This document shows positions 1-64,000 of a stretch of DNA of 64,000 nucleotides, one piece after another; within the stretch, counting starts at the first letter, position 1, and each line of letters starts with the position of its first letter. The position numbers were made by a program, and so were the translations under genes. The notes under the pieces are model-generated. The model ran no database searches. It had not been told where the DNA came from and was given only the letters and a program-made list of their open reading frames with translations. The stretch covers positions 1,207 to 65,206 of the forward strand of contig JAJRVV010000103.1 in the NCBI GenBank assembly GCA_024277135.1, in the 5' to 3' direction. This DNA is from Chloroflexota bacterium (GTDB lineage Bacteria > Chloroflexota > Anaerolineae > Promineifilales > Promineifilaceae).

Positions 1-118
1 TGGCCGCCGCATACTGCCGGTGTTTCTCCAGCTCTTTCTCTTTGTCAGCGATTAGCGTCAACGTTCCAGCGTCAAATGCTTCTAAAATCTCTCGTTCTTC
101 ATCATCTAGCTTATCCAT
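1..118 (-). CDS. window-edge partial CDS: N-terminal 39 aa of a small antitoxin-like protein
   Basis: Own minus-strand translation MDKLDDEEREILEAFDAGTLTLIADKEKELEKHRQYAAA... ATG at 118 with GGGAGA 5 nt upstream; open to the window edge. The acidic EEREILEAF N-terminus resembles small CopG/BrnA-type antitoxins. Too short for the ORF track. Confidence 0.35.
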   Translation of the reverse strand, partial: MDKLDDEEREILEAFDAGTLTLIADKEKELEKHRQYAAA

Positions 119-187
119 GATTATCTCCCAAGCCAATAGCAGCATGATGTACATCAAATGCCATCACAATTGCGATTTGCACGGCTT

Positions 188-1912
188 TCATCTGTATCGT
201 CTGCTCCAGATGAACAAACCTAACCCCAACAAACCCCCCGCGCCAATGAGCCAGTAGGAATAATTGGAGGCTGGAGATTGGGGGTCAGGGGTCAGGGGTT
301 GGGGAGTAGATGTTGGTTGTTGATTGTTAACTGTTAACTGTTGACTGTTGATTGTTGGCTGTTGATTGTTTAATGTTGCCGTGGGCACGGCCGTCGCCGT
401 CGCCGATAGCGTAAGCGTAGGCGTAGCGGTGGGGGCGCTGGTGGGCGTCGCTGTCGCCGATGGCGTGGCGGTTGCTGTCGCCATGGGTGTTGACGTGGGC
501 GTGTTTGTCGGCGTGGCCGTCGGTGTCGCCGTAGCCGCAGCCGTCGCCGCCGGCGGCGCGCCCGGAACCGAGGGCACGCCGCTGCCGGTGGTGGACTGCA
601 CCAGGTAGTAGGTGGTTCCGCCAATCATGCAATCCTCGCCAATCACCTGGCTGCAAGCGGCGGCGGGCAGGGCGACGGTGAACACGCCGCCGCTGGCGCT
701 GATGATTTGCCGGGCGCCCCATTGGTCGGCCAGCACGGCCGTACTGGCCACCGCCTCCACCTGGGTCGTTTGCGGCGACGGCCGTCGTGAAAACAGCACC
801 GTCGTCGTTTTATCCGCCTGCTCAATCCGAATCTGCCCCACCGTGTCCCACCGCTGCCGCTGCACGGCCGTCATCCCCGACAAATACCGGATCGCCATCT
901 GGTACGCAGTGAACGCCGGGCGGCGGGAGCCATCCATCCGCACCAGTCCAAATGGTTCCGGGTTCGCCGCCACATCGCCGGGGGTGTCCCGCAATTTGAA
1001 AACGGCGATCCGCTGCGCCCCCGCCGCCAGCGCCGCCGCCATCGCCTGCGGCATAAACGCCGCCTGTTCTTGCTGCGAGACGGCCAGCGTCCAGTTGGGC
1101 ACGGGCCACGCCGGGTCATCAATCGGCGGCGCATTCGTCTCCACCAGCCACAGCGGTTTCCAGGGGATGCCCCGGCTGGCGACAGCGCCGTAAAAACTTT
1201 GGATGATGTCGTAGATGCTGTTGGGCTGAAAGTAAAGATGGGCGGTGATGGCGTCGAAATAATAATTGTTGCCCGGCGCGCCGGGATCGGCTACCAGCAC
1301 GTCGAGAAAGCGATAGATGTAGCCGGGGTCCCAAAAGTAGGTGAAAGCGGGCAGGTGGATGACGGCGTTGGGGTTGACCTGCTTGGCGGCGATGTAGGCG
1401 ATGCGCTGCAACTGGAAAAAATCTTCCACCGAGCCGGGCCAGGTGTGACCGGGTGCGTTGGCGTCGCCGATGTCCGGCTCGTTCCAGATGATCCAATGGT
1501 TGATACGGCCGTCATACCGCCCCACCACATTCCGCACATAGACCGCCCAGGTGTTGTTCGGGTCTTCCTGCGGCAGCCAGAGGCCGCGCGGCAGCCCATT
1601 TTCCCAGGCAAAGGGGGCCGTGCCGATGAGCAGCCCCACCACCATGCGCCCGGCGGCGAGTTCGGCGTTGATTTGGGCGTCGCTGACCGAGGGCGTCCAG
1701 GTTCCCGGCCCGCCCGCCTGCGCTTCCGCCCAATGGAAACGCACCCGCGTCCAAGCCGCCCCCAGCGCGTTCGCCGCCGCCGGGTCTTCGTAGCTTTCGA
1801 TGACGCCGAACCGCCAATCCACCGGCGCGGCTGGGGGCGCGGCTTGGGCGGAGGAGAGTTGGGTGACGCCCGTGAGGAGGATGAGTAGTAAAAGGAATTT
1901 AGTGGCTCGCAT
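188..1912 (-). CDS. secreted clan GH-A (TIM-barrel) glycoside-hydrolase-like protein with Thr/Pro linker and C-terminal membrane anchor
   Basis: 574-aa ORF with signal peptide MRATKFLLLLILLTGVTQLSSAQA. IIWNEPD (acid/base) and LWLVETN (nucleophile) motifs are typical of clan GH-A. ATATPTATPTNTPTSTP linker; C-terminal hydrophobic helix followed by RRYR. Confidence 0.6.
   Translation of the reverse strand: MRATKFLLLLILLTGVTQLSSAQAAPPAAPVDWRFGVIESYEDPAAANALGAAWTRVRFHWAEAQAGGPGTWTPSVSDAQINAELAAGRMVVGLLIGTAPFAWENGLPRGLWLPQEDPNNTWAVYVRNVVGRYDGRINHWIIWNEPDIGDANAPGHTWPGSVEDFFQLQRIAYIAAKQVNPNAVIHLPAFTYFWDPGYIYRFLDVLVADPGAPGNNYYFDAITAHLYFQPNSIYDIIQSFYGAVASRGIPWKPLWLVETNAPPIDDPAWPVPNWTLAVSQQEQAAFMPQAMAAALAAGAQRIAVFKLRDTPGDVAANPEPFGLVRMDGSRRPAFTAYQMAIRYLSGMTAVQRQRWDTVGQIRIEQADKTTTVLFSRRPSPQTTQVEAVASTAVLADQWGARQIISASGGVFTVALPAAACSQVIGEDCMIGGTTYYLVQSTTGSGVPSVPGAPPAATAAATATPTATPTNTPTSTPMATATATPSATATPTSAPTATPTLTLSATATAVPTATLNNQQPTINSQQLTVNNQQPTSTPQPLTPDPQSPASNYSYWLIGAGGLLGLGLFIWSRRYR
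281..380. repeat. heptanucleotide tandem arrays (GGGGTCA x3-4, then TGTTGAT/TGTTAAC x10; sense strand CAACAGT-type) inside the 3' end of the hydrolase CDS
   Basis: Read directly: ggggtcaggggtcaggggttggggagtaga, then ten 7-nt units tgttggt tgttgat tgttaac tgttaac tgttgac tgttgat tgttggc tgttgat tgtttaa tgttgcc (311-380). Translated as NNQQPTINSQQLTVNNQQPT. Confidence 0.85.
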
Positions 1913-1926
1913 GGGGAAATTGTCAA

Positions 1927-2799
1927 TTAGTAATTAATAATTAGAAGCTCTTTCACCGGCCCCCGTTTGTTTGCTTTGCTGTTGATGTTGCGCCGCGCCT
2001 GGATTTTGATGAGACGGTAGGGGGGACGGCCGTCATACAGTTCATACACCAGCGGCGCGCTGGAATTGCTTAACATAACCCTGCAATCTCGCGCCGTCAA
2101 ATCGGCGACGACGGCCGCCAACCGTTTCTGGTCGGCGACGGTAAACCCATCCTTGCTGTAGCTGGTGAAGCTGCTGGTGGCGCTCAGCGGCGCGTATGGC
2201 GGATCGAAATAGACGAAGTCCCCTTCCTGGGCGTCGGCCACCGTCTCTTCAAAATCGGCTGCCAGCAGCCGCGCGCCCTGCAAGGCGCGGGCGGCCGCGC
2301 GCAGGCGGCTCTCGTGGCAAATCGTGGGGTTTTTGTACCGGCCAAAGGGGACGTTAAATTCCCCCCGGCTGTTTTCCCGGTAGAGGCCGTTGTAACAGAT
2401 TTTGTTTAGGTAGATCAGCCGGGCGGCGCGCTCGGCCGGGGATAAATCGGCCGGATTCTGGGCGCGGACGGCGTAAAAGTAATCGGCGTCGTTCCGGTGG
2501 GGCTGCAAGGCGCGGATGACGCCGTCCACATTCTGCTGCACCATCCGGTACGCCTCGATGAGTTTGTCGTTTTTATCGGATAGGGTGGCGCGGGGAAATT
2601 GATAATGGAAGAAAACGGCCGCGCCGCCAATGAACGGCTCGAAATAGCGGCGGACGGTGTGCCTGGGCGGGAAATAATCCTGGTATTGGGCCAGAAGCCG
2701 CTGCTTGCCTCCGGCCCATTTGAGGAATGGGGCGGCGTTTTGGATTTTGGATTTTGGATTTTGGATTTTGGATTGGGACGCCAGGCGTTCATCCTTCAT
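1927..2799 (-). CDS. dam: DNA N6-adenine methyltransferase, Dam / D12 class (no cognate nuclease seen)
   Basis: FLKWAGGKQRLL, EPFIGGAAVFF (SAM pocket) and VYFDPPY catalytic motif. There is no alternative start downstream of the 5' repeats, so the SKIQNPKSKIQN tag must be translated. Confidence 0.8.
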   Translation of the reverse strand: MKDERLASQSKIQNPKSKIQNAAPFLKWAGGKQRLLAQYQDYFPPRHTVRRYFEPFIGGAAVFFHYQFPRATLSDKNDKLIEAYRMVQQNVDGVIRALQPHRNDADYFYAVRAQNPADLSPAERAARLIYLNKICYNGLYRENSRGEFNVPFGRYKNPTICHESRLRAAARALQGARLLAADFEETVADAQEGDFVYFDPPYAPLSATSSFTSYSKDGFTVADQKRLAAVVADLTARDCRVMLSNSSAPLVYELYDGRPPYRLIKIQARRNINSKANKRGPVKELLIINY

Positions 2800-2817: not shown

Positions 2818-3696
2818 AAAATCGTACAGTCCGTTTTCTACCCGCCAGATGTGGTCGCAGTCGGGGTTGGGGCAGGGGAGACGGCCGTCCACCTCTGTCA
2901 ACGGCGTCTGGCAGGCGGGACAAGCGAAAAAAGCGTCTGGCGCGGCGGTGACGGCCGTGTCCGGGTGCTGGTTTAGCACAAACACGCTGGGGGATAGCTG
3001 CCACCAATTCCCCGTTAGCTGCGCCAGGCTGTCCAGCCCCGCCAGCAGGCGGGTGGGAACCAGCTTCTTTAGCAGCGCTATCCGGTAGTGGGAGACGGTC
3101 AGCATCCGCCCCGGCCCGAACCCGGCGGTTTCCAGTTGGCGTCGAATCCAGCGAGGGTGAAAATCGAAGTTGAGTTCGGCAAATTCCACCGGGTCCAGGG
3201 TGAAAGGCGACCACTCCTGGCGGCGCAGGCCGTAGCGCAAAATCGCTTTCAGGTTTTGTTTGTTGGCGAATTCGAGGATGTAACGGCCGTCTTTGCGGGC
3301 GATGCGGGCCAGTTGTCGGAAAACAGCCGGGGCGTCGGCGGCGTGGTGCAGGGTGCGCACCTGCACGATGGTATCAAACAGCCCGGCCACGAAAGGCATG
3401 GCGTACCAATTACCGGCCACATAGATGAATTTGGGGTCATCCCCCAGCCGCTCTTGGGCTTCGCGCAGCAGGGAGCGGGAGTAATCGAACAGCGCCACCC
3501 GTTCATAGCCGCGATACTCATCGGCCAGACGGCCAAACCCGGCGCCAATTTCGACGAGCGTACCGCCGTTAGACGGCATCAGGCGGCGCAGGGCGATGCG
3601 CTCCACCCGGTCTTCGTAATTTCGGTTTTGATTTTGCCAAAAGCGGGTGCGGTAATCGGACCCTTCGTAATCACATACGGGCGGGGTGTGGTTCAC
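2803..3696 (-). CDS. class I SAM-dependent methyltransferase with C-terminal Trm112-like zinc ribbon
   Basis: LVEIGAGFGRLADEY motif I. C-terminal CPACQTPL...CPNPDCDHIWRVENGLYDF. Only 3 nt from both neighbouring genes. Confidence 0.7.
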   Translation of the reverse strand: MNHTPPVCDYEGSDYRTRFWQNQNRNYEDRVERIALRRLMPSNGGTLVEIGAGFGRLADEYRGYERVALFDYSRSLLREAQERLGDDPKFIYVAGNWYAMPFVAGLFDTIVQVRTLHHAADAPAVFRQLARIARKDGRYILEFANKQNLKAILRYGLRRQEWSPFTLDPVEFAELNFDFHPRWIRRQLETAGFGPGRMLTVSHYRIALLKKLVPTRLLAGLDSLAQLTGNWWQLSPSVFVLNQHPDTAVTAAPDAFFACPACQTPLTEVDGRLPCPNPDCDHIWRVENGLYDFKDEG

Positions 3697-3699: not shown

Positions 3700-4329
3700 C
3701 TACTCGTTACTGCTGACGGGTTCGGGGGTGACGGCCGTGTTCCCGGTCAAAATTCGCTGCATCAGCTCGGCGTTAGAAGATGGCAGGCGGCGTAGAATTT
3801 CGTCCAACGGACCGAACCGTGTTTTTAGCGTGCCGAACGGCTGGCCCAAATCCGTTTGATCCAGCGGGATTTCCACGTTCACATCCAACTGTACCGGGAT
3901 CGTCTGATCCACGGGCACATCCAGATTGAGCGACACCGGCAAGACCATCCCTTTGGGGAGTGATAAGGTAACGGCGCCTTCAATCGCGCCACTGCCGCCG
4001 GACAACACAAAGACAGTGGGCACATTTTGCAGCGCCACCGCCTCTTGCAGCACCACGTTGGTCGTTTGCGACAAGGGCAGCGTGAAGGAAATGGGCATGG
4101 TGTCGCTGACCGGAATGGTCTGTACGATGCTGGCGTCGTCCATCTGCACAAAACTGTCGTTCAGATCGCCCACGATAGGCACGGCGATATCAGACACAAT
4201 GGGGATGATGAGCGGCGCCACCAGCAACAACACGATGATCAATATCAAATTCATCGTGAAGGAAAAAAAGATGGCAAAGTTTTTGAACGCTTGCCACGGT
4301 TGTCCACGCCAGAGCCATTTACGGTTCAT
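3700..4329 (-). CDS. membrane-anchored hypothetical protein (first gene of a tight four-gene operon)
   Basis: 209-aa ORF with N-terminal TM helix (FAIFFSFTMNLILIIVLLLVAPLIIPIV) and normal, protein-like composition. No family recognised. Confidence 0.5.
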   Translation of the reverse strand: MNRKWLWRGQPWQAFKNFAIFFSFTMNLILIIVLLLVAPLIIPIVSDIAVPIVGDLNDSFVQMDDASIVQTIPVSDTMPISFTLPLSQTTNVVLQEAVALQNVPTVFVLSGGSGAIEGAVTLSLPKGMVLPVSLNLDVPVDQTIPVQLDVNVEIPLDQTDLGQPFGTLKTRFGPLDEILRRLPSSNAELMQRILTGNTAVTPEPVSSNE

Positions 4330-4537: not shown

Positions 4538-5707
4538 ATGAGTCATGATATTGCTATCTTTCTCGATCTGGATAACCTCGTCATCGGGGCCAAACAAATC
4601 AACCTGACGTTTGACATCAATCTGATTCTGGATCATATCAAGGAGAAGACGAACGGCCGTGTCGTCCTGCGTCGGTCGTATGGGGGTTGGCGGCAAAGTC
4701 AAAAGTTATTGCAAGACCTAACTAGGGCGGGATTCACCACCCAGTCCACGGTGCGCATCAATAACTTCATCAAAAATTTGGCCGATATGCAAATTGTGGT
4801 GGATGCGATGGATACGCTGGTGGATGGTCATCAGTACAGCGCCTACGTCCTCATCACCGGCGACCGGGATTTTACGCCGCTGGTGCAGTCGCTGCGGAAG
4901 CGGGGCAAGCGGGTGATCGGGGTGGGTATTCGCCCGTCGGCCAGCCTCAGTTTTGTGCAGTTATGTGATGAGTACACTTTTTATGAGGACCTGGTTCCCG
5001 AATCCGCTAAGCCGGGTCTCCAGGTGGGGACGCTGCTGGAGCAGGCGTTGGCTGAATTGCTGAAAGGGAAAAAACGGGTGCGGGCCAGCGTGCTCAATCA
5101 AAAAATGAGGGCGTTGAGCCACGATGTGTTTGACAGTTCGTTTTATTCTCCCAAAAGTTTTCGCCGCTTTTTGGAGCAATATCCCGATTTGGTGGCGGCG
5201 GAACAGGAGGGTTCGACGACGTATGTGCGCTATCCTGTGACGGAAAGAACACGGCCGTTGCCTCTGCGTTACCGGAGTGAGTTGAAGCGGCGTAAGCTGC
5301 GGGTGACGCCGCCCCGGCCACGATTGCGAATTCTCAAGGATTTGATCGTTCATGTCGAGCGGCAACCCGGCGTCCGCTGGCGGCAGTTGGTTGACGAAAT
5401 GTACCAGCAGTATCAGACGGCCGGTTCAGACATCTCCAAAAACATGATCAATGCGGTGATGTTGGCGGCCCGCCACGCCCAAATTTTGCTGACGCAAAAG
5501 GGGCGCGCGCTGGCCTCTGCGCCAGTTTCGCTGGCAGAATGCAGCTCGTTTCAGGAAGCGGTGATCCAGTGCGATGCGGTGTATTTGCGGGAGATTCTGG
5601 AATTGGATGAGCCGTTTGATTTACAGGCGGCGGCAGAGGCTTTGTATGATTCGGCGGCGTACTGCCGTTACCTGAAACAAGTGATGGACAAGTGGGTGGA
5701 GAGTTGA
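4538..5707 (+). CDS. NYN (LabA-like) domain protein with OST-HTH/LOTUS-like region
   Basis: IAIFLDLDNL ... ITGDRDFTPLVQSLRKRGKRVIGVG is the NYN/LabA signature. It is followed by a helical region of OST-HTH type (FYSPKSFRRFLEQYPDLV). Confidence 0.7.
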   Translation: MSHDIAIFLDLDNLVIGAKQINLTFDINLILDHIKEKTNGRVVLRRSYGGWRQSQKLLQDLTRAGFTTQSTVRINNFIKNLADMQIVVDAMDTLVDGHQYSAYVLITGDRDFTPLVQSLRKRGKRVIGVGIRPSASLSFVQLCDEYTFYEDLVPESAKPGLQVGTLLEQALAELLKGKKRVRASVLNQKMRALSHDVFDSSFYSPKSFRRFLEQYPDLVAAEQEGSTTYVRYPVTERTRPLPLRYRSELKRRKLRVTPPRPRLRILKDLIVHVERQPGVRWRQLVDEMYQQYQTAGSDISKNMINAVMLAARHAQILLTQKGRALASAPVSLAECSSFQEAVIQCDAVYLREILELDEPFDLQAAAEALYDSAAYCRYLKQVMDKWVES

Positions 5708-5804: not shown

Positions 5805-6308
5805 TTATACCGCTATCTCCGAACGATGTCCCAGCCCCTTGCTGTTGTCAATGAAATAAAGGCGTGACGGCCGCAGCCGATACCAGTTGACTTTGGTTAG
5901 AGCTTGCGCAATTTGTGGGTTGGGTTGGGCGATGAAGGGGAATTTGCGCAGGTAGCGGGCGACGGCCGTGGCTTTGGCCGCCCCCGTTAATTCAGCGGCT
6001 GTCCCTTCCAGTTGAATGCCTTGAATCTTGGGCCAATCCCGATAATCCTCATGAACGGCCGCCGCCGCCTGGGGCTGGCTGCTCATGTTTTGGGCGTGGC
6101 GGGTGTGTCTGGCGGAGAGGAAGATCAGGTCGAAGCCGTCATTTACGTAAAACAGGGCCGCCGCCCACACCCCGTCCGGCCCCGTCGTAGCCAACGTCAT
6201 CACCCGATGAGTTTGCAGATATTCGAGGGTCTGGCGGCGCAGGTCACTGCTCACGGCCGTGTCCGCCTCCTTGCCAGCGTGTGAATAAATCCTCATCCAG
6301 TTCCACAT
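5805..6308 (-). CDS. pyridoxamine 5'-phosphate oxidase-like FMN-binding split-barrel protein
   Basis: LEYLQTHRVMTLATTGPDGVWAAALFYVNDGFDLIFLS pattern. The start is uncertain; any start that keeps the conserved N-terminus overlaps ubiX by more than 50 nt. Confidence 0.6.
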   Translation of the reverse strand: MWNWMRIYSHAGKEADTAVSSDLRRQTLEYLQTHRVMTLATTGPDGVWAAALFYVNDGFDLIFLSARHTRHAQNMSSQPQAAAAVHEDYRDWPKIQGIQLEGTAAELTGAAKATAVARYLRKFPFIAQPNPQIAQALTKVNWYRLRPSRLYFIDNSKGLGHRSEIAV

Positions 6309-6952: not shown

Positions 6953-7906
6953 ATGAAATCACATTTTATCTCAGACTTGCGCATTGGCGACGAATTGGAT
7001 AACGAACCTTTCCTGGTGCGGGACATGGTGCGGCGGACGACGAAGGACGGCCGTCCCTTTCTACTCTACACATTGGGCGATAAAACAGGGCAGGAAGCGG
7101 CCGTTTTTTGGGACGTACCCGACTACATCCAAAGCTGGATCAAAACCGGTGTGGTAGCGCTGGTGACGGGCCGGGTCGTCAGCTATAAAGACGCGCTGCA
7201 AATCACCACCACCGACCTCAACCTCAGCTCTCAGCATGACATGGCTGATTTCTTGCCGGCCAGCAAGCGAGAACGAGAGGAAATGGTGGCTGAACTACAC
7301 CAATTCGTAGCTGATTTGGCCCAGCCGTGGCAGGGGTTGGTGCGCCAGCTTTTGCTAAGTGAGGCGTTTCTGCCCCAATTTGCCAGCGCCCCGGCGGCGC
7401 GCGGTTTCCACCACGCCTTCATCGGCGGCTTGCTGGAACACACGCTTAGCATGACCCGCCTGGCCGTCTATCTGGCAGACTCTTACCCTTATGTCAACAA
7501 AGACTTGCTGGTGGCGGGCACGCTTTTGCATGACATGGGCAAGGTGATCGAATATGAAACGGCCGCCGGATTCTCGTTCACGGATGACGGCCGTCTGGTC
7601 GGTCACATCGTCCGCGCCATCACCATGATTGAAAAAGCCGCCGCCGAACCGGGAATGCTGTCCGCCGAGCAGTTACGCCAACTGGTTCACCTGGTGGTTT
7701 CCCATCATGGCAAGCAGGAGTGGGGATCGCCGGTCGTGCCCAAAACGCTGGAAGCCGTTATCCTGCACCAAATTGACATGCTGGACAGCCGGGTGCAGGG
7801 TTTCTATGACCATGTGCGGGCCAACGACAGTGTGGATGGCTGGACGGTCAAAAGCAGCTTGATGTTTGGCACAGATTTAATGAGGCCGGATGGTATGGCG
7901 GAGTGA
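6953..7906 (+). CDS. yhaM: OB-fold + HD-domain 3'-5' exoribonuclease, YhaM family
   Basis: HHAFIGGLLEHTLSM and LLHDMGKV HD motifs after an N-terminal OB-like region. Start moved to the ATG at 6953 (MKSHFISDL); the track's upstream extension translates the GAAGGAT repeat. Confidence 0.7.
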   Translation: MKSHFISDLRIGDELDNEPFLVRDMVRRTTKDGRPFLLYTLGDKTGQEAAVFWDVPDYIQSWIKTGVVALVTGRVVSYKDALQITTTDLNLSSQHDMADFLPASKREREEMVAELHQFVADLAQPWQGLVRQLLLSEAFLPQFASAPAARGFHHAFIGGLLEHTLSMTRLAVYLADSYPYVNKDLLVAGTLLHDMGKVIEYETAAGFSFTDDGRLVGHIVRAITMIEKAAAEPGMLSAEQLRQLVHLVVSHHGKQEWGSPVVPKTLEAVILHQIDMLDSRVQGFYDHVRANDSVDGWTVKSSLMFGTDLMRPDGMAE

Positions 7907-7954: not shown

Positions 7955-10048
7955 TCATTCGTTTCCTCCGTGATTCGTTGTCCTGTCGTGATACCCGGCC
8001 GGAACCAGATACAACAACCCCATGTGTTCGCCATTGACGGGTGAATAAATGGGACGGGACTCGCCGTCGGGGAAAGCCTGTTCCACGGCCGCCAACTCCA
8101 TCAACCGCTGTGGCAGGAAAATAAACACCGCCCCCCGCCCATCATCCGGGTAAGATAAGGCGGTGGCCACGGCCGTCTCCGGCTCAATCACATCCACCGC
8201 TTTAGCTTCTGGAATCAGGTAAGGCAGGGTGGCAAACCCCCAATACATCCAGGGCGCGCCCACAAAATAGAATCGGTTGGTCAGGGCCAGTTCGTTCAGC
8301 GTGGGCGCGATTTCGGCGGCCAGCGCCGCATGGGGGCCGCCATAAATCCGCTGCGGCGTGTAGTCGAGAAAATAGGTGGCGATACTGCTCAAACTGAACA
8401 GCGCCACCGCCAATGCCCATATCGCCCGCTCCGGCACGCCGCGTATGGCCGTCTTGGCTAATTCTAAAATCTCCCCAATGGCCAGCACGATGAAATAACA
8501 GACCGGGATCGCCAGCGTGATCAGCCGTTGGCTGGATGGCGGGCTTTCCGTCAACATGCCGCCCAACAGCACACCGCCCCACCACCAGGCCACCATCGGC
8601 GCCGAACGGCCGTCCGGCCGTCGCCCCAGCAGGCGCAGGGTGGCATACCCCAACCCCATCAGGAAAACTGTGCCAAAAAACGGAGAAAGCAGCGGTTCTT
8701 TCAGGCCGTACCACACGGTGCGGTCGGCGTAATAGTTGAAAGCCAACACCGCCCGACGAAATTGGTCAAACAGAATGGCGGCCGTGCTTTGGCCACGAAC
8801 CGCCACTTCCCGTTCCAGCCAGCCGCTTTGGATGATGCCCACTTGATTGACGCGGGCGTTGAAGTCGTCGGGGAAGTTGAGCGCGTACTGAATCATGGGC
8901 GCGCCGGTGATGAAAAACGCGATGACTAACACGGCCGTCCCCTGTCGATATTTCCCCCAAAACCGGCGCGGCTGCCGCACTAACGCATACGCCAAAACGG
9001 CCAGCATCACCAGCGGCGTCAATCTGGCTCCGGCGTAAAAATACATCGCCAGCCCGGAAATCACGCCGCTCAACGCCCAATCCCGCCGGTTATCCTCGTC
9101 CATCGCCCGCACTAGGAAAAAGAGGGCCAGCGGCATAAACAAGGTGTCGGCGATCTGGTTGGAACCAAGCCGGGAGAAGTGGATGTGAAAATGGTAGGTG
9201 GCGACCAGCACGGCCGTCAGCCAGCCCCACTTGTTTCCCTTCAAGCGGCGCACCAAAAAATAAGTTGCCACTGCGGAAAGCGCGCCTACCAGCGTCCAGG
9301 GCAGGCGCAAGGCCAACGTGGTGCGCCCCATCCAGCGGATGGAAAGGCTGTTGAACATGAAGCTCAGGGTGGGCACGCCTAGCCAGCCGGCGCTGAACGG
9401 GTTGCGAATCTGGCCGTTGAGGACGCGCACCGCCTCCAGCCCTTGCGAGCCTTCATCGCCGCTCAGGGCGTAGGGGATGCTGTCCAGCCGCCACGCCCGC
9501 AGCGCCAACGCCAGCAGGCCGATGGCCACGGCCGTCACGCTCTCCCGCCAATGCGCCCGCCACCAAACCCGCCAGCCAGACCATTTCAGTCGTGGCGATA
9601 CCGCTGGTATCGCGGCCAGAAACAACCCGATGGCGGCCAGCCACGACCATGTTACCAGGCCGAACTCTCCATCTTTGGGGATGGTGGGCAGCCATTGCCA
9701 GTTAATCCAGGTCAGCAGCGCCGCCGCCGCCAACATCAGCGAACGGCCGTGTTCTTCCAGCGTGGCTGTCCAGGCGAATCCCAGAATTGGCAGTGGCGCC
9801 GGTTCAATGGGCGGATTTGGTTGCGTAGCAGACGGCCGTTCCGCCATACGGCGGCCCAACCTCAGCAGCAAAACAGCCGCCATAAGCGGCAAAAGCGCCA
9901 CCAACGGCAAAGGCGCCATCGGCTGCGCTTCCCGCGCCTTTTGCACCGTCCAGAGGGTGGTGAACATGCCCGACAGAACGGCCGTTAACAGAAGCAGCGC
10001 TTGCGGATTGCGAATACGAGATGAAATTGACATAATTTGCTTAATCAA
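7955..10048 (-). CDS. GT39 / ArnT-like polytopic glycosyltransferase
   Basis: 697 aa with many TM helices and the LSGDEGSQGLEA loop typical of PMT/ArnT-type (GT-C) transferases. Confidence 0.7.
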   Translation of the reverse strand: MIKQIMSISSRIRNPQALLLLTAVLSGMFTTLWTVQKAREAQPMAPLPLVALLPLMAAVLLLRLGRRMAERPSATQPNPPIEPAPLPILGFAWTATLEEHGRSLMLAAAALLTWINWQWLPTIPKDGEFGLVTWSWLAAIGLFLAAIPAVSPRLKWSGWRVWWRAHWRESVTAVAIGLLALALRAWRLDSIPYALSGDEGSQGLEAVRVLNGQIRNPFSAGWLGVPTLSFMFNSLSIRWMGRTTLALRLPWTLVGALSAVATYFLVRRLKGNKWGWLTAVLVATYHFHIHFSRLGSNQIADTLFMPLALFFLVRAMDEDNRRDWALSGVISGLAMYFYAGARLTPLVMLAVLAYALVRQPRRFWGKYRQGTAVLVIAFFITGAPMIQYALNFPDDFNARVNQVGIIQSGWLEREVAVRGQSTAAILFDQFRRAVLAFNYYADRTVWYGLKEPLLSPFFGTVFLMGLGYATLRLLGRRPDGRSAPMVAWWWGGVLLGGMLTESPPSSQRLITLAIPVCYFIVLAIGEILELAKTAIRGVPERAIWALAVALFSLSSIATYFLDYTPQRIYGGPHAALAAEIAPTLNELALTNRFYFVGAPWMYWGFATLPYLIPEAKAVDVIEPETAVATALSYPDDGRGAVFIFLPQRLMELAAVEQAFPDGESRPIYSPVNGEHMGLLYLVPAGYHDRTTNHGGNE

Positions 10049-10859: not shown

Positions 10860-11835
10860 TTATTCTTGATAAAGCGTCAGGTCGGGAAAGGCGGCGATGA
10901 GGGAAAACCAGAAGGCGGAACGAACGGGCAGCGGCTGGAGTTGGGTTCCGGCCAATTCCCCGGCAACGGCCGTCCTGGTGAAGGCCCAGGTGGAGCCGGT
11001 CTCGTTGTCAGTGATGAGGATGTCGGCCCAGGTGAAGGTGAGGGCGCGGCCGTCCACGCTGGACAAATACGCCGCGCCGGTTGGCCCCTGCTCCTGGCTG
11101 AAGATGACCAGCGCCGTCCCCTCGATTTCGTCGTTGATCACCCCGTCTCCCACCCGTTCAATCGGATAAGCCCGCAGGGTGTCGCCCATGTCCACCCCCA
11201 ACGCCACTTCGCCGGGGGTCGAGCCGGGGATCACGGCCGTTTTCGGACACAGGAAAGGCAAAGCGGCCCGTTTCGTTGATCTGACGGCCGTATCCGGCAA
11301 AGGGGTCAGCCGCGTCCCGGTCAACCGGCCCACAATCGCTTCGCCGCTGACCTGCATCTAATAAGAACCGGTCTGGTGATCTACCATCGCCATGTCCGAC
11401 TCGTACAGGGCGCTGGTGTTGCCAAGCAGGTACGTCTCCCCGTCCACCCGGCGATCATAGACGCCGCCGCTGCGGCACAGAGGGTAGTAGCTAACCAGGA
11501 TGGGACGGCCGTTCACACTGTGGCTGACCATTTCGTGGAAGTTGAGGATGCGGATGGGATAGGCAAAAGCTTCGTCCCCATAGGCGTAACCGAGAACGAT
11601 GTCGTGCTCTCGCAGCCAACCGCTGGCGGCCGTAGCTGGCTCAAAGAGCGGCTGGTAGATGGGGGGGGATGGCGTCTAGATCTACGGTGATTTCTGTTGG
11701 CGGTAAGGGGATGGGCGTCGGGGTAGAGGGGATGGTTGCTTAAGTGACCGGCGTGGCGGTGAGGGGAACGGCCGTCTGGCAAGCCGCTAGAAACAAAAGG
11801 CCGAAAATCATTCCTGCTACACGTCGGTTTCGCAT
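10860..11835 (-). pseudogene. DUF3179-family lipoprotein gene with three lesions (TAA, frameshift in a G8/C8 run, TAG replacing Trp)
   Basis: Own translation. Lipoprotein signal MRNRRVAGMIFGLLFLAACQ from 11835; TAA at 11742-11740. The frame changes at the homopolymer 11661-11668. The DUF3179 core then reads IYQPLFEP...AYPIRILNFHEMV...YYPLCRSGGVYDRRVDGE...DHQTGSY, followed by TAG (11360-11358) where the family has Trp, then MQVSGEAIVGRLTG in the same frame. Confidence 0.6.
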
Positions 11836-18817: not shown

Positions 18818-18947
18818 GTTTATGTCGCTGTCTGCCAAATAAAATCTGTTGGGCGATGGCTGGCTGTCACTCTGCATATGGTACAATAACATCGTATGGC
18901 AACGGCCGTTTCATCACAATTGAGCAATCGTCATCTCAGGTAAAGAC

Positions 18948-43760: not shown

Positions 43761-43817
43761 TTGATTTGATCTGCCCGTCGTGCCATCGGCGCTAGATGAG
43801 ATGCGCCTAACGGCCGT

Positions 43818-51735: not shown

Positions 51736-51845
51736 TTTCACAACTCTAGCCAAGCCGTTGTGTTATTAAAATTGTGACTTACGGCCGTTCGGCCTTACGG
51801 CCAGGCCATCCCTATCCCCAATTCAGCAAGAACAGGAGACACTCC

Positions 51846-53225: not shown

Positions 53226-53660
53226 TTAATCATCAAGCTCTCGTATCTTTTTTCGCGTTTGTTTCTTTTGTTTGCGCTGCCGTTTTTGGGACAGCCGCTT
53301 TTCCACGGCCGTCCGGCTGGGCTTAGTCGGTTTGCGTTTTTTGCGTTTGACGAGGGCGGCGGCCAAGAGGGCTTGGAAGCGGGCGACGGCCGTTTCCCGA
53401 TTCCGGTGTTGGCTGCGTGACTCCTGCGCATCAAGGCGCAGAACCCCCTGTTTATCCAGGCGGGTCGCCAGCTTTTTCAGCAGACGTTGGCGGGTTTTCT
53501 CATTCAGGCTGGGCGATTGGGCCACATCAAACAACAGCGTCACCCGCGTGGCCGAGCGGTTGGCGTGCTGACCGCCCGGCCCGCTGCTGGCGCTAAAACG
53601 GAATTCCAATTCGGCCGTTGGAATACTAAGATGTTGGTTAATAACGATGGTTTCATCCAT
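53226..53660 (-). CDS. arfB: alternative ribosome-rescue factor ArfB (peptidyl-tRNA hydrolase)
   Basis: GPGGQHANRSATRVTL GGQ domain plus a Lys/Arg-rich C-terminal tail. Confidence 0.85.
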   Translation of the reverse strand: MDETIVINQHLSIPTAELEFRFSASSGPGGQHANRSATRVTLLFDVAQSPSLNEKTRQRLLKKLATRLDKQGVLRLDAQESRSQHRNRETAVARFQALLAAALVKRKKRKPTKPSRTAVEKRLSQKRQRKQKKQTRKKIRELDD

Positions 53661-53713: not shown

Positions 53714-54220
53714 ATGCAACTCGTTAATCAATACTCTGCGCTGTTTTCCCTGATCTTACCAGTGGGGCTGCTGGCAACGGCCGTTGTCTGGCGTCATCAT
53801 CCCCTTCGCAGCCGGATCGTGGGCGGCTTCGGCCTGTTGCTGCTGGTTTTCATCGGCTACTTCCTGATCCAGCCGGAAGCTGATGCAGTGGCTGTCAATG
53901 AAGTGGAAAGGCTGTTGACCGCGGCGGACGGACGGCCGCCGGACAATCGTCCGCTGTTCCTGTACCTCTACTCTGACTATTGAGCGGCCTGCCTGCGGGC
54001 CAAACCCATCGTGGATGGGTTAGAAGCAGAGTGGGGCGAGCAAGTGTACGTGGTGCGCCTCAACGTCCACGATAAGGGCGTGACGCCCCTGCTCCAGCGA
54101 CTCAACTTCCGCTTTACGCCTACCTTCATCCTGTTCGATGGCGAAGGGCAGGAGGCGTGGCGCACTACCGGCATCGTGAATCCTGACGAAGCCAGCCAAA
54201 AGGTAACCGGCTTGCCGTGA
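53714..54220 (+). CDS. membrane-anchored thioredoxin-fold protein with one in-frame TGA at the first Cys of the CxxC motif (selenoprotein candidate, otherwise pseudogene)
   Basis: Track ORFs 53714-53983 and 54011-54220 are in the same frame, separated only by the TGA at 53981-53983. The joined sequence reads ...PLFLYLYSDY-[TGA]-AACLRAKPIVDGLEAEW...FTPTFILFDGEGQEAWRTTG, a Trx fold with its cis-Pro region. Confidence 0.45.
54003..54021 (+). promoter_or_regulatory. hairpin 20 nt downstream of the in-frame TGA (SECIS-like position)
   Basis: AACCCATC gtg GATGGGTT: perfect 8-bp stem with apical loop GUG. Confidence 0.35.
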
Positions 54221-55227
54221 CCATGCCCAATCAAAAATCAAAAATCCAAAATCCAAAATCCCGCCACGTCCACCTCTTTTTCATGGACGGCGTGGGCATG
54301 GGCGGGGACGACCCGGCGGCGAACCCGTTTGTGACGGCCGCACTCCCCTACCTGACCGGGTTGTTTGGGGAGAATTGGTTTTTTCCCAACGGCCGTCTCA
54401 CCACCCCTCGCGCCAGCCTCATCCCCACCGACGCTAACCTGGGCCTGCCGGGACGGCCGCAATCCGCCACCGGGCAGGCCGCCATCCTCACTGGCCGCAA
54501 CGCGCCCCAACTGGTCGGCGAGCATTACGGCCCCAAACCGAACCCGGCCGTCGCCGCCGTCATCCGGCAGGGGACGTTATTTCACGATGTGGTCGCTATC
54601 GGCGGACGCGCCGCGCTCATCACCCCCTACCCCCAACCCTATTTCGACGCCATCGCCAGCGGCCGGCGGCTGCTCTCCAGCGTGCCCCTGGCCGTCACCG
54701 ACGCCGGTTTGCCTTTGATGACGGCCTATGATTTGCGAAACGGCCGTGCCGTCAGTCCCGGCTTCACCGGCGCCGGGTGGCGGGACCACCTGGGCTACAG
54801 CGACATCCCCCTCATCACCCTGGCAGAAGCCGGGCAGCGCATCGCCGCCATCGCCCGCGAACACCATTTCAGTTTCTTTGAACATTGGCCCAGCGACCGC
54901 AGCGGGCATCGGGGTTCGTTGGATGCGGCCGTCAGCCACCTGGAAATGCTCGACGAAGCCATCGGCGGCTTGCTGGCGGCGTGGGATGACGAACATGGCC
55001 TGCTCATCATCACCAGCGATCACGGCAACATCGAAGACAAGTCCCAGCGCCGACACACCCGCAACCCGGTTCCCACCATCCTAGCCGGCCGGGGGCACGC
55101 CGAATTTGCCGCTCAGATTCACGATTTGACAGATATTGCGGCCGCAGCGCGTCAATTCCTCGGCCTGAACCAACAGTCAACAGCTAACAACCAACAGTTA
55201 ACAGTTAACCCAAGAGGTGAAACATGA
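54217..55227 (+). CDS. metalloenzyme-superfamily phosphomutase (cofactor-independent phosphoglycerate mutase-like)
   Basis: HVHLFFMDGVGMGGDDP, SATGQAAILTG, ITSDHGNIED motifs. The N-terminal tag PNQKSKIQNPKS and the C-terminal tail NQQSTANNQQLTVN are repeat-encoded. Confidence 0.55.
   Translation: MTMPNQKSKIQNPKSRHVHLFFMDGVGMGGDDPAANPFVTAALPYLTGLFGENWFFPNGRLTTPRASLIPTDANLGLPGRPQSATGQAAILTGRNAPQLVGEHYGPKPNPAVAAVIRQGTLFHDVVAIGGRAALITPYPQPYFDAIASGRRLLSSVPLAVTDAGLPLMTAYDLRNGRAVSPGFTGAGWRDHLGYSDIPLITLAEAGQRIAAIAREHHFSFFEHWPSDRSGHRGSLDAAVSHLEMLDEAIGGLLAAWDDEHGLLIITSDHGNIEDKSQRRHTRNPVPTILAGRGHAEFAAQIHDLTDIAAAARQFLGLNQQSTANNQQLTVNPRGET
54228..54262. repeat. AAAATCC-type heptamer array just inside the 5' end of the phosphomutase-like CDS
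   Basis: caatcaaaaatcaaaaatccaaaatccaaaatccc. Confidence 0.8.
55171..55212. repeat. CAACAGT-type heptamer array (6 units) at the 3' end of the phosphomutase-like CDS
   Basis: caacagt caacagc taacaac caacagt taacagt taaccca. Same family as 311-380. Confidence 0.8.
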
Positions 55228-55724
55228 GTATCGGTTCTGAACAATTTCGGGACGCCCTGCGCCATTTTCCGGCCGGGGTGACGATTGTGACCATGAAAAC
55301 GAAGGATAGCGAGGTGCGGCATGGCCTGACGGTATCCGCCTTCTCCTCCATCTCGCCCAAACCGCCGCTGATCATGGTGGCGATTGACCACCGCGCCAAT
55401 GCGTACAAAATCATGGAACAGGAAGGGACAGTGTTTGCCGTCAATATCCTGGCCCAAGACCAGATGGAGTTATCCAATCGGTTTGCCTGGATTAAGGATG
55501 AGGATCGGTTTGCACAAGGGGATTGGGGCACGGCCGTCACCGGCGCGCCCATTCTGCAAAACGCCCTGGTCTGGCTCGACTGCACCATTTTTGCCCGGCA
55601 CAACGTCGGCGACAACACCCTGTATCTGGGCCAAGTTCAGGCCAGTCAAGTCAACCGCCCCGAAGAGCCGCCGCTCATCTATTGGAACCGGGGATACCGG
55701 CAGCTAAAGTTAGGGGATGATTGA
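55224..55724 (+). CDS. flavin reductase-like FMN-binding protein
   Basis: FRDALRHFPAGVTIVT...GLTVSAFSSISPKPPLIMVAID pattern. Overlaps the upstream stop by 4 nt. Confidence 0.75.
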   Translation: MSIGSEQFRDALRHFPAGVTIVTMKTKDSEVRHGLTVSAFSSISPKPPLIMVAIDHRANAYKIMEQEGTVFAVNILAQDQMELSNRFAWIKDEDRFAQGDWGTAVTGAPILQNALVWLDCTIFARHNVGDNTLYLGQVQASQVNRPEEPPLIYWNRGYRQLKLGDD

Positions 55725-55915: not shown

Positions 55916-57348
55916 ATCCTGGCCGCCGCCCATTCGTACAACTGCTGATACCCCAACGCTGACCGGCGCCAGGAGAAATCCCGGATCATGCCGTTGCCTT
56001 GAATTTGCCGCCAGCTATCCTTGTCCACATTGAAAATATAAATCGCGCGTTGCAGCGCCTGCCAAAAATCCTCTGTGGCGTAATTGTGGAAGGTGAAGCC
56101 GGTGATGCCGTCCTGCACCGTATCCGCCAGGCCGCCGGTGGCGCGCACCACCGGCACGCTGCCATAACGCATGGCGATCATTTGCCCCAATCCACATGGC
56201 TCAAACAAGGATGGCATAAGGAACAAATCACTCCCGGCATAAATAAGCGGGGCCAGACCAGCGTTATAGGCCAAAAATGCGGTCATTTTTTGCGGATGCT
56301 GGCTGGCCAGATGGGCAAACATCCGCTCATACTGCGCCGCCCCGGTCCCCAGCGCGATGAACTGCGCTTCCCCGGCGTAACCGTTCATCAGCAAGTGGAC
56401 GACATGGCCGGTGATGTCCATCCCTTTTTGCCAATCCAGCCGGGAGATCATAGCCACCAGGGGGATGTCGTCCCGTAGGGGCAGACCCGCTTTTTCTTGC
56501 AGCGCGCGCCGGTTGGCGGCACGGCCGTCCATCTGCCCCACCCCATACGTTTGCGCCAATCGCGTATCCGTTTCTGGATTCCACACGGCCGTGTCCAACC
56601 CATTGAGAATGCCAAACAAATCCCCCTGCCGGTGACGCAGCAACCCATCCAGACCGGCGCCGCCATCAGACGTCATAATCTCGCGGGCGTAGGTAGGGCT
56701 GACCGTGTTCACCAACGTGGCATGGAAAATGCCCCGCGCCATAAAATTCACTTCCCCATACCCTTCTTCCCGCAGCGAATGGGTGCAAAGCTGAAGATAG
56801 TCAAAAATATCCCAGCTCGTTTTGCCCTGGTGCGCCAGATTGTGAATGGTGAAGACAGACGCCATCTTTTGAAAAGCGGGATGCCGTTGCCCGGCGGTCG
56901 CCAGCCAGGTGACGGCCGGGGCTGCGTGCCAATCATGCGCATGAACCAGATCCGGCCGCCAAGCCAGCGCCAACGTCAATGCCAGCGCCGCCCGGCTGAA
57001 AAAGGCAAACCGGTACGGGTCGTCGCCATACCCATACGTTTGGGGGCGAGCAAACAAATTGCGCTCGGCGATGAAATAAACCGGCACATCGCTGTCCGGC
57101 AGACGCCCCTGGAAAACGCCGGCTTCTATCAAACCGGAGCCGGTGGGCACGCGCAGCGTATGCGGCATAGGGGTCACGCCCTCAACCCCGCGCTCAATCG
57201 GCAGATAGGCGGGCATGACCACCCGCACATCATGCCCCAGCGCCCGCAGCGCTTTAGGCAAAGAACCGGCCACATCGCCCAGACCGCCCGTTTTGGCGAA
57301 GGGGGCGGCTTCAGCGCTGATGAACAAAATTTTGAGCGAATTTGTCAT
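55900..57348 (-). CDS. glgA: glycogen synthase
   Basis: KILFISAEAAPFAKTGGLGDV and full-length GlgA. Start set to MTNSLK (ATG 57348). Confidence 0.9.
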   Translation of the reverse strand: MTNSLKILFISAEAAPFAKTGGLGDVAGSLPKALRALGHDVRVVMPAYLPIERGVEGVTPMPHTLRVPTGSGLIEAGVFQGRLPDSDVPVYFIAERNLFARPQTYGYGDDPYRFAFFSRAALALTLALAWRPDLVHAHDWHAAPAVTWLATAGQRHPAFQKMASVFTIHNLAHQGKTSWDIFDYLQLCTHSLREEGYGEVNFMARGIFHATLVNTVSPTYAREIMTSDGGAGLDGLLRHRQGDLFGILNGLDTAVWNPETDTRLAQTYGVGQMDGRAANRRALQEKAGLPLRDDIPLVAMISRLDWQKGMDITGHVVHLLMNGYAGEAQFIALGTGAAQYERMFAHLASQHPQKMTAFLAYNAGLAPLIYAGSDLFLMPSLFEPCGLGQMIAMRYGSVPVVRATGGLADTVQDGITGFTFHNYATEDFWQALQRAIYIFNVDKDSWRQIQGNGMIRDFSWRRSALGYQQLYEWAAARMSYEQ

Positions 57349-57358
57349 ACCCTCACCA

Positions 57359-58576
57359 TCATTTACCGCCAGCCCACCCCACAAACAGGATGACGGCCGT
57401 CCCCGCCAACGCCGCCCCAAACAAAAAGGGAGCCTGGGGGCCGAATCCGGGCCAGGAACCGACGCCCTGCCACAGTATACCGGCGATCAAGCTGGCCGGT
57501 AAAGCCGCCAATCCCACCGCCGCGTTGTACACGCCAAACGCCGTTCCCCGCTGTGCCTCTGGCGCCAGATCGGCTACATACGCTTTAGCCGTGCCTTCAA
57601 AGGCGGCGTAGTAAATGCCATACAACGCATAGAGCAGCCAGATGTGGACGGCGGTTCTCGCCAGGGCAAAGCCGAGATAGAGCGCCCCATACACCAGCCA
57701 GCCGCCGATGATGATTGGGCGACGGCCGTATCGATCTGACAGCGATCCCATTTTGCCCGACAAAGCGGCATACACCAGGTTAAACGCGGCCAGCATCCCC
57801 AAAATGGCGACGATGCTCAATCCCCGCTCCTGCGCCCGCAAAATCAGGAAGGCGTCGGCGGAATTGCCCAGGGTAAACAGGATGATGATGAACAAAAAGC
57901 GGCGAAAACGGCTGTCGAATTCTTTTAACGACAGCCGGGGCCGTTTTCGGGGACGGGTGACGGCCGTTTCCTGCACCCCGATAACTAATGCCGCCACCGC
58001 CAGCCCGCCGGGCACGATGCTCCACAACACCACTCGCTGGAACGCCGTCCGGCTCAAAGCCAGGCCATTCGATTGCACCAGCCACACCACTGCCAGGGCG
58101 ATGAGGATGCCCAGCATGGCCCCCGCTGTGTCCCCGGCCCGGTGCAGGCCATAGGCTCGTCCTCGCTGCGCCGGGGTGATGCTGTCGGCGATCAACGCAT
58201 CGCGCGGCGCGGTGCGGATGCCTTTGCCCACTCGGTCAGCGAAGCGCACGCCGAGGACGGCCGTCCATGACCCGGCCCATACCAGTAGCGGCCGTACCAG
58301 CGCCGAGAGACCATACCCGGCCGCTGCCAACTGTTTGCGGCGGCCTAATTTATCCGAAATCCAACCAAAATATACTTTGAGTAAACTGGCCGTCGTTTCG
58401 GCAATGCCTTCAATCAGGCCAATCGTCGCCGCGCGCGCGCCCAGCACGTTGGCCAAAAACAGGGGCATCAAGTTTAAGACCATCTCGCTGGCGATGTCGT
58501 TGAGAAAACTGGTGGCAGTCACTGCCCAGATGTTACGTGGCAGTGATTTTTGTGAGGGAGGTGTTTCCGTTATCAT
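57359..58576 (-). CDS. MFS transporter
   Basis: 405 aa with 12 TM helices and the GWISDKLGRRK loop motif. Confidence 0.75.
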   Translation of the reverse strand: MITETPPSQKSLPRNIWAVTATSFLNDIASEMVLNLMPLFLANVLGARAATIGLIEGIAETTASLLKVYFGWISDKLGRRKQLAAAGYGLSALVRPLLVWAGSWTAVLGVRFADRVGKGIRTAPRDALIADSITPAQRGRAYGLHRAGDTAGAMLGILIALAVVWLVQSNGLALSRTAFQRVVLWSIVPGGLAVAALVIGVQETAVTRPRKRPRLSLKEFDSRFRRFLFIIILFTLGNSADAFLILRAQERGLSIVAILGMLAAFNLVYAALSGKMGSLSDRYGRRPIIIGGWLVYGALYLGFALARTAVHIWLLYALYGIYYAAFEGTAKAYVADLAPEAQRGTAFGVYNAAVGLAALPASLIAGILWQGVGSWPGFGPQAPFLFGAALAGTAVILFVGWAGGK

Positions 58577-58735: not shown

Positions 58736-59503
58736 ATGAGTATTCGTCGAATGCTGCCCTTCATCCTCATCAACATCATCGTCTCCGCCGCCGTGGTGCT
58801 GGCGGTTCTGTTTTGGTGGGAGCGGCGGCAGGCGGAAACGGCAGAACCGACGCCGCCGGCCGTCATTGAAGTCACAGCGCCGCTGGCAACGGCCGTGCTC
58901 GACCTGGCCGCGCTGCCCACCGACACGCCGGAGCCGGAAGGCAACCAACCGCTCATCCACATCGTCAAAGCCGGCGAAACGCTGGGCAGCATCAGCCAAT
59001 TCTATGAGGTAGATTTAGAAGACATCATGACGGTGAACGGGATCGGCAACCCTAACTTGCTGTCGGTGGGGCAAGAACTGGAAATCCCGATTGGCGGCAT
59101 TCCCACACCCACGCCGCCGCCCACAGATACGCCGGCCCCGGCCCAAATCCCCTCGCCCATCCCCACCGAAGATTTGTCCGGGAACGGAGAAGTGATTGTG
59201 GAGATCACGGCCGTCACCGGCAGCGGCCGTCTCGCCGAAGAAATCGTGCAAATCACCAATCGGGGCGGTCAACAAATCGCTCTGCTGGGTTGGCAGCTCG
59301 CCGACGCCGATGGCTTTGTCTATACTTTTGGCCCCGTTACTCTTTTTGGGGATGGGGCAGCCATTCAACTGCACACCGAAACGGGCATAGACACCCACGC
59401 TGACTTGTTTTGGGGGCTGGAAACGCCCATCTGGGCCAGCGGCGAGCTGGTCACTTTATCCGATGCCGATGGTAACACTCAGGCTACTTATCAAATTCCG
59501 TAA
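58736..59503 (+). CDS. membrane-anchored LysM + lamin-tail-like (LTD) domain protein
   Basis: Start at MSIRRMLPFILINIIV (AGGAGA RBS). LysM IVKAGETLGSISQFYEVDLEDIMTVNGI. C-terminal VEITAVTGSGRLAEEIVQITNRGGQQIALLGWQLAD. Confidence 0.65.
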   Translation: MSIRRMLPFILINIIVSAAVVLAVLFWWERRQAETAEPTPPAVIEVTAPLATAVLDLAALPTDTPEPEGNQPLIHIVKAGETLGSISQFYEVDLEDIMTVNGIGNPNLLSVGQELEIPIGGIPTPTPPPTDTPAPAQIPSPIPTEDLSGNGEVIVEITAVTGSGRLAEEIVQITNRGGQQIALLGWQLADADGFVYTFGPVTLFGDGAAIQLHTETGIDTHADLFWGLETPIWASGELVTLSDADGNTQATYQIP

Positions 59504-59825: not shown

Positions 59826-60698
59826 ATGCGATTAGGCGCACATATGAGTGCGGCCGGCGGCGTTTACACCGCCTTTGCTCGCGGCCAGAAGGCTGCCTGC
59901 GAGACCATTCTGGTGTTTACCAAGAGCAACCGGCAGTGGAAAGCGAAACCATTGGCCGATGAAGATGTCCAGAATTACCGGGAGGCGGCCGCCGAACATA
60001 GCGGTATTTTCCCAACGGCCGTTCACGCCAGCTATCTGATTAACCTCGCTTCCCCCAAGCCCGATTTGTGGCAGAAATCCCTCGACGCGCTCAAAATCGA
60101 AGTGGAGCGCGCCGGGCAGCTAGGCATCCCCCTGCTCGTCTTCCACCCCGGCTCCTACGTCACCGCCGATGAACAAACCGGACTGGATAACATCGTCCGC
60201 GCTTTGCAGCAGCTTTTGGCGGATACGGCCGATTCCGCCCCCGGCGTGACAGTGTGTCTGGAAACAATGGCCGGGCAGGGTACCAACCTGGGGCATCGCT
60301 TCCAGCAGTTGGCCTATTTGCTGGAAAACGCCGGGCCATCGGAACGGATGGGCGTCTGCTTCGACACCTGCCACGTCTTCGCCGCCGGATACGACATCCG
60401 CACCCCGGAGGCGTATGCAGCCACGATGTCTGAATTCGACCGGGTGATCGGCCTGGAACAGATCAAATGCTTCCATTTCAACGACAGCAAATTTGAGTTG
60501 GGCCGGCGCAAAGACCGGCACGCCCACATCGGCGACGGCTTCATCGGCGGGGAAGGATTCGCCAACTTCCTCAACGATCCGCGCTGGGCAGAGTATCCGG
60601 CCCACCTGGAAACACCCAAAACGGAAGAGGATGAGGACGGTAACGAGATTGAAATGGATGTGGTCAACCTGGCAACTTTACGCAGCTTAATCAAATAG
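59826..60698 (+). CDS. nfo: endonuclease IV
   Basis: MRLGAHMSAAGG..., FHPGSY, CLETMAG, CFDTCH, FHFNDSK...DRHAHIGDG metal-ligand motifs. AAGGAGG RBS. Confidence 0.9.
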   Translation: MRLGAHMSAAGGVYTAFARGQKAACETILVFTKSNRQWKAKPLADEDVQNYREAAAEHSGIFPTAVHASYLINLASPKPDLWQKSLDALKIEVERAGQLGIPLLVFHPGSYVTADEQTGLDNIVRALQQLLADTADSAPGVTVCLETMAGQGTNLGHRFQQLAYLLENAGPSERMGVCFDTCHVFAAGYDIRTPEAYAATMSEFDRVIGLEQIKCFHFNDSKFELGRRKDRHAHIGDGFIGGEGFANFLNDPRWAEYPAHLETPKTEEDEDGNEIEMDVVNLATLRSLIK

Positions 60699-61014: not shown

Positions 61015-61443
61015 TTAACTGACACTTCGAGCAACAAAATGAGGAAAAGACGCTCGCCGCTCATCCTGCAAGATGTCGTCTATTTCCAGCCAATGCATCC
61101 CCTCCCACAAATAGACATCCAAATCCACGCGCAAATCGTCGCTGACGACGACGCCTTCGGCGCGTAAGCGATCCGCCTGTTCGTTGCCGCTATGTTCCGG
61201 GTTGATGATGCTGATGCGTCCCTGACTGTTGATCACCCGCTGCCAGGGCACGCCGTGATCTTCTTTGTCCTTGAGGGCGCGCAGGGCATACCCCACCGCT
61301 CGCGCCGCCGTGGGCCGGCCCAACATGCGCGCCACACGGCCGTAACTCGTCACCTGCCCCCGCGGAATCCGGCGCACCACCGCATAAACCTGTTCGTAAA
61401 AATTGGAAGCGCTCACCCCGACATTATAATGAGAAATGAGCAA
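61015..61443 (-). CDS. alkyltransferase-like (ATL) protein: MGMT DNA-binding fold with Trp in place of the acceptor Cys
   Basis: IPRGQVTSYGRVARMLGRP...VPWQRVINSQG (PWQRV instead of PCHRV). The start is uncertain: TTG at 61443 lies in the repeat; GTG at 61416 is possible. Confidence 0.7.
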   Translation of the reverse strand: MLISHYNVGVSASNFYEQVYAVVRRIPRGQVTSYGRVARMLGRPTAARAVGYALRALKDKEDHGVPWQRVINSQGRISIINPEHSGNEQADRLRAEGVVVSDDLRVDLDVYLWEGMHWLEIDDILQDERRASFPHFVARSVS

Positions 61444-62196: not shown

Positions 62197-62931
62197 TTAC
62201 GGGGTTTGGCTGGCGGCGGCTTTGTCTAGCAGCCAGGTGAGACGGCCGGTGTGGGGTTGAATGCGGGCGGCGGGGCATTGGATGGGGTCGGGTTTGGGGG
62301 CCAGCACGGCCGTCAACGCCGCCGCCTTATTCTCCCCCGCCACCAGGAAAATAACGTGGCGGGCGTCGTTGAAAACGAGGGGGGTGAGGGTGATGCGGTG
62401 GGCGGGACGGCCGTCATAATCGGCAGTGACGGCGATGACGGGCTGACTGGTTTCTGCCGGCGGAATCGGGCCGGGGAACAGGGAAGCGGTATGCCCGTCG
62501 CCGCCCATCCCCAACAAAACCAGGTCGAATCGAGGCCAGACACGGCCGTCTTCGGCAAATTGACGCAGGAGATGAGCGTAATGGGTGACGGCCGTCGCCG
62601 CCGCTGATTCGCCCAGCACCCGGCGATAATTTTTGCCAGGAATGAGTAAATGCTCCCGCCATAGCTGCGCCACCTGCCCATAATTGCTGCCCGGATCATC
62701 AGGCGGAACCAGCCGCTCGTCCCCCCAAAAGAGATGGGTTTGCGCCCAGGGCACGGCCGCGCGATACGGCGATTGGGCCAGCAGTTCATACAACCGTTGG
62801 GGTGTGCCGCCGCCGGACAGCGCCGCCAAAAAACGGCCGCGCGCCGCTACCGCCGCCCGCGCTATCTGGGCAAACATCTCCGCCGCCGCCCGGCTCAAGC
62901 TCTCCTTGTCAGGAAAAACCTGAATGTCCAT
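62197..62931 (-). CDS. pgl: 6-phosphogluconolactonase
   Basis: LSGGGTPQRLYELLA and WGDERLVPPDDPGSNY. Start set to MDIQVF (ATG 62931). The track start at 62964 would add the repeat-encoded MKSKIRNPKSK. Confidence 0.85.
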   Translation of the reverse strand: MDIQVFPDKESLSRAAAEMFAQIARAAVAARGRFLAALSGGGTPQRLYELLAQSPYRAAVPWAQTHLFWGDERLVPPDDPGSNYGQVAQLWREHLLIPGKNYRRVLGESAAATAVTHYAHLLRQFAEDGRVWPRFDLVLLGMGGDGHTASLFPGPIPPAETSQPVIAVTADYDGRPAHRITLTPLVFNDARHVIFLVAGENKAAALTAVLAPKPDPIQCPAARIQPHTGRLTWLLDKAAASQTP

Positions 62932-62975
62932 TTTGGATTTTGGATTGCGGATTTTAGATTTCATCCTTCATCCTT
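62931..62975. repeat. AAAATCC-type array followed by GAAGGAT-type units in the glk-pgl junction
   Basis: ttttggattttggattgcggattttagatttcatccttcatcctt. Confidence 0.8.
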
Positions 62976-63949
62976 TGCATCGCGTACTCCGCCGCTCCCA
63001 ACAGCCCGGCATGGGGATGGCAGATGACGTAAATGGGCATATCGGCCAGAATGTCGCTGAAGCGGCCTTTGCGTTGAAACTGTTCCCGGAAAAACGGCCG
63101 TTGCAACTGCGATAAAATTCGGGGCGGAATGCCGCCGCCGATGTAAATGCCGCCGGTGGACAAAACCTTGAGCGCCAGATTGCCGGCCTCATCGGCCAAA
63201 ATGCTGATGAACAAATCCAGCGCTGCCAGCGCCATCGGTTCCTCTTCTTCCAACGCCGCCGCAAAAATGATCGGGGTCGGGTCTTCGGCGGCGGCGACGG
63301 CCGTGTCCAGCCAACCCGGTACGGCAAAACAGCCGCTGTCGCGCAAAAACGCATACAGATTGGGAACGCCGCTGCCGGAGCAAACCCGCTCGTAGCTGAC
63401 GTGATCAAATTGGGTTTGTAAGTAAATCAGCAAATCGCGCTGCGCGGCCGTCGTCGGCCCAAAAGAGGCATGTCCCCCCTCGGACGGATGCGCCTGGTAG
63501 GTACGGCCGTTCCAGGTCAGGAACGCCTCGCCCAACCCGGTTCCCGGCGCAATCACCGCTATCGCTCCGTCCGCTTCCGCTTCACCCGGTTTTAACGTCG
63601 CCAGATCATCCGGCTGCAAATGGGGCACGGCATTAGCAATCGCCTCTAAATCATTCAGCAAAAACACCCGCTCAATGCCAAAAACGCGCGCCAGTTCGGC
63701 GGCGTCAATCACCCAGGGCAAGTTGGTAATTTCGGCCCGGCCGGCCACCACCGGCCCGGCCACGCCAAAGCTGGCCTGGGCGATCTGGTTTTGTTCAGAC
63801 GGGGTGAGGAATTGGGCGATGATGGCGGTTAGAGAATTATACGCATCACTGGCAAACCGGGCTTCGCGCAACGGCCGTCGCGCCCCCTGCGCCGGATCAA
63901 TCAGAGCCAGCGCTGTTTTTGTGCCGCCAATATCACCCGTCAACAACAT
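62954..63949 (-). CDS. glk: glucokinase
   Basis: MLLTGDIGGTKTALALID ATP-binding N-terminus; Glk-family length and motifs (VIAPGTGLGEAF, YIGGGI). Confidence 0.85.
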   Translation of the reverse strand: MLLTGDIGGTKTALALIDPAQGARRPLREARFASDAYNSLTAIIAQFLTPSEQNQIAQASFGVAGPVVAGRAEITNLPWVIDAAELARVFGIERVFLLNDLEAIANAVPHLQPDDLATLKPGEAEADGAIAVIAPGTGLGEAFLTWNGRTYQAHPSEGGHASFGPTTAAQRDLLIYLQTQFDHVSYERVCSGSGVPNLYAFLRDSGCFAVPGWLDTAVAAAEDPTPIIFAAALEEEEPMALAALDLFISILADEAGNLALKVLSTGGIYIGGGIPPRILSQLQRPFFREQFQRKGRFSDILADMPIYVICHPHAGLLGAAEYAMQRMKDEI

Positions 63950-64000
63950 GCCCAAAATCGCCTGTAGGCGTTAAGAAAAACATTTTGGGTTTATTTCCGG

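Follow-up and report, generated by a model that had tools for sequence, protein, structure and literature searches.

The palindromic octamer ACGGCCGT is hyper-abundant throughout the 64 kb window (the whole stretch of DNA analysed here, positions 1..64000). We read it as a HIP1-like element with a new word in a new phylum (Chloroflexota, Anaerolineae-type genome).

Abundance and reading frames of ACGGCCGT

An exact count retrieved 115 copies, within the hand estimate of 110-125 given in a preliminary description of this DNA, and the mean gap between copies over the whole window is 557 bp, or about one copy per 550 bases. The first 10 kb hold 24 copies where approximately 26 had been estimated, and the approximately 62 % G+C assumed at that time was too high, the measured value being 55.7 %. 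When all palindromic 8-mers of the window were ranked, ACGGCCGT was first by far, the runner-up having 9 copies. Dinucleotide-preserving shuffles (n=100) yielded 1.46 ± 1.14 copies, with a largest value of 5, placing the excess over chance at approximately 80-fold, and Markov models of orders 0-4 predicted 1.4-12 copies. The expectations under orders 5 and 6 (48 and 95 copies, respectively) are circular, because the 7-mers ACGGCCG and CGGCCGT, with 142 and 140 occurrences in the window, nearly always belong to ACGGCCGT. The preliminary description had named a higher-order Markov or codon-aware null as the comparison able to overturn its claim. With synonymous codons shuffled per gene and the proteins held fixed, 15.3 ± 3.5 copies (maximum 27) were expected against the 112 observed in CDSs, and a codon-order shuffle gave an expectation of 1.95 (maximum 8); both codon-aware nulls lie far below the observed count, so the over-representation stands.

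The 10-mer form GACGGCCGTC, to which the word had been said to be often extended, does occur, though in only 21 of the 115 copies; a G is found at -1 in 43/115 and a C at +1 in 54/115. The density is 1.9 copies per kb in coding sequence versus 1.0 per kb in non-coding sequence, the latter resting on 7 copies only.

As previously described, the copies are read in all three frames: 108 lie wholly inside ORFs called here, and these are read as T-A-V (60), [N/D/H/Y]-G-R (35) and R-P-x (13). The tripeptide T-A-V was observed 62 times where 7 would be expected, with ACG-GCC as its codons in 61 cases, which indicates that the word is imposed on the DNA and not on the proteins. Protein sequences are nonetheless altered where ACGGCCGT is present. 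In phosphoglycerate kinase (ORF 17573-18817(+)), the conserved SHLGRPK has become SHLGRPS, yielding a copy at 17803..17810 that is read R-P-S, displaces the conserved Lys and is common to five relatives. A second copy in the same gene (18173..18180) is read T-A-V where outgroups have I/V-A-V, and is common to 14 relatives.

Likeness to HIP1, relatives and flanking composition

The parallel with HIP1 drawn in the preliminary description holds on every feature tested. Similar to HIP1, ACGGCCGT is a palindromic octamer in approximately 80-fold excess that is read in all frames and visibly skews proteins; it occurs across the lineage, orthologues share copies, departures from the word mostly affect its outer positions, and there is a sister variant, CCGGCCGG, that differs in the outer bases. 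The comparison with relatives proposed earlier again ranked ACGGCCGT first among palindromic octamers in 17 related cellular loci; in some close relatives it does not rank first, and one relative has CCGGCCGG in its place. Near-miss copies are scarce. Orthologues keep copies at matching sites, as in murJ (ORF 48237-49844(-)), where the copies at 48465..48472 (N-G-R) and 49150..49157 (T-A-V) are each kept in five of six relatives and that at 48370..48377 (T-A-V) is common only to L002, an 87 %-identical relative.

Two observations are new, the first of them absent from the preliminary description. Around every cellular copy the base composition follows a strand-symmetric gradient, with G enriched 5' of the copy and C enriched 3' of it. 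This gradient is strongest at synonymous codon positions, fades smoothly and is gone by approximately 35 nt. Phage and plasmid-like contigs carry ACGGCCGT at a density equal to or above the cellular one, and their copies are without this gradient. The flank zone resembles what a DNA-processing event beginning at the copy might leave behind.

Candidate causes

A site-specific methylation or nick-repair drive would most likely account for the enrichment, and among the causes put forward earlier a methylation-linked or repair-linked bias is the best candidate. Near-miss words of ACGGCCGT lack a transition-specific depletion. The search for a cognate methyltransferase or Vsr gene, also suggested earlier, did not find the enzyme of such a drive, with no cytosine methyltransferase or Vsr gene present in the window or any fetched locus, and the sole DNA methyltransferase of the window (1927-2799, minus strand) is a DpnM/Dam-type enzyme for GATC. 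Alternatively, ACGGCCGT may be a Chi-like site or an uptake signal, or it may have an architectural role. Dense carriage of the word in phage and plasmid-like contigs makes the uptake signal, suggested earlier, less likely, and the earlier suggestion of a defence (restriction) target is contradicted, because these contigs are packed with ACGGCCGT and show no avoidance of it.

Positions of the remaining copies

All remaining copies are exact matches, given here with the ORFs as called in this work. ORF 188-1912(-) is read T-A-V at 387..394, 735..742 and 864..871, R-P-x at 778..785 and x-G-R at 1505..1512. The methyltransferase ORF 1927-2799(-) has x-G-R at 2026..2033; ORF 2803-3696(-) has x-G-R at 2881..2888 and 3283..3290 and T-A-V at 2951..2958; ORF 3700-4329(-) has T-A-V at 3731..3738; ORF 4538-5707(+) has x-G-R at 4653..4660 and R-P-x at 5251..5258; ORF 5805-6308(-) has T-A-V at 5962..5969 and 6253..6260; and ORF 6788-7906(+) has x-G-R at 7047..7054 and 7587..7594. 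Within ORF 7955-10048(-), T-A-V is read at 8169..8176, 8931..8938, 9210..9217, 9528..9535 and 9978..9985, x-G-R at 8606..8613 and 9743..9750, and R-P-x at 9832..9839. T-A-V follows at 10966..10973, 11233..11240 and 11284..11291 (ORF 10860-11357(-)) and x-G-R at 12765..12772 (ORF 12392-13429(+)).

Further T-A-V copies lie at 15549..15556 and 15594..15601 (ORF 15495-16580(+)) and at 16823..16830 and 17021..17028 (ORF 16655-17038(+)). ORF 19913-20263(+) has x-G-R at 20067..20074 and T-A-V at 20213..20220; ORF 20336-21175(+) T-A-V at 20459..20466 and 20489..20496; ORF 21226-21891(+) T-A-V at 21406..21413 and R-P-x at 21762..21769; ORF 22065-24434(-) T-A-V at 22252..22259 and x-G-R at 22890..22897; ORF 24603-25463(-) T-A-V at 25021..25028 and 25165..25172; and ORF 25515-26024(-) T-A-V at 25753..25760. 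ORF 26263-27330(-) is read T-A-V at 26570..26577, 27191..27198 and 27269..27276 and x-G-R at 26713..26720 and 26962..26969, followed by x-G-R at 28660..28667, 29038..29045 and 29287..29294 (ORF 28375-29385(-)) and at 29814..29821 (ORF 29751-30332(-)).

ORF 30621-33635(-) carries x-G-R at 31698..31705 and R-P-x at 32849..32856 and 33323..33330; ORF 33700-35286(-) T-A-V at 34505..34512, 34637..34644 and 35021..35028; ORF 35582-38665(-) x-G-R at 37676..37683; ORF 38733-40235(-) R-P-x at 39209..39216; ORF 40202-41329(-) x-G-R at 40250..40257; ORF 41547-43118(-) T-A-V at 41893..41900 and 42031..42038; and ORF 43952-45085(+) x-G-R at 44091..44098 and R-P-x at 44248..44255. T-A-V is read at 45631..45638, 46258..46265 and 46330..46337 and x-G-R at 46422..46429 in ORF 45153-46712(-), and R-P-x at 46935..46942 and T-A-V at 47212..47219 and 47461..47468 in ORF 46888-47853(+).

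Beyond murJ, ORF 50113-51735(+) has T-A-V at 50479..50486, 50797..50804 and 51256..51263; ORF 51774-53174(+) x-G-R at 51781..51788 and T-A-V at 51990..51997; ORF 53226-53660(-) T-A-V at 53305..53312 and 53386..53393; ORF 53714-53983(+) T-A-V at 53777..53784; ORF 54217-55227(+) x-G-R at 54389..54396 and 54740..54747; and ORF 55224-55724(+) T-A-V at 55530..55537. In ORF 55900-57420(-) x-G-R is read at 56521..56528, T-A-V at 56585..56592 and R-P-x at 57393..57400, and in ORF 57359-58576(-) x-G-R at 57722..57729 and T-A-V at 57960..57967 and 58257..58264. T-A-V is also found at 58889..58896 and 59207..59214 (ORF 58688-59503(+)) and at 60015..60022 (ORF 59781-60698(+)), and x-G-R at 61336..61343 (ORF 61015-61443(-)). 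ORF 62197-62964(-) has T-A-V at 62306..62313 and 62588..62595 and x-G-R at 62407..62414 and 62542..62549, and ORF 62954-63955(-) has R-P-x at 63094..63101 and 63871..63878, T-A-V at 63297..63304 and x-G-R at 63503..63510.

Outside called ORFs are the copies at 11505..11512, 11768..11775, 12014..12021, 12158..12165, 18902..18909, 30516..30523 and 43810..43817. Lastly, ORF 13541-14761(-) contains a 15-bp tandem duplication with one copy per unit, both read x-G-R, at 13976..13983 (unit 1) and 13991..13998 (unit 2).

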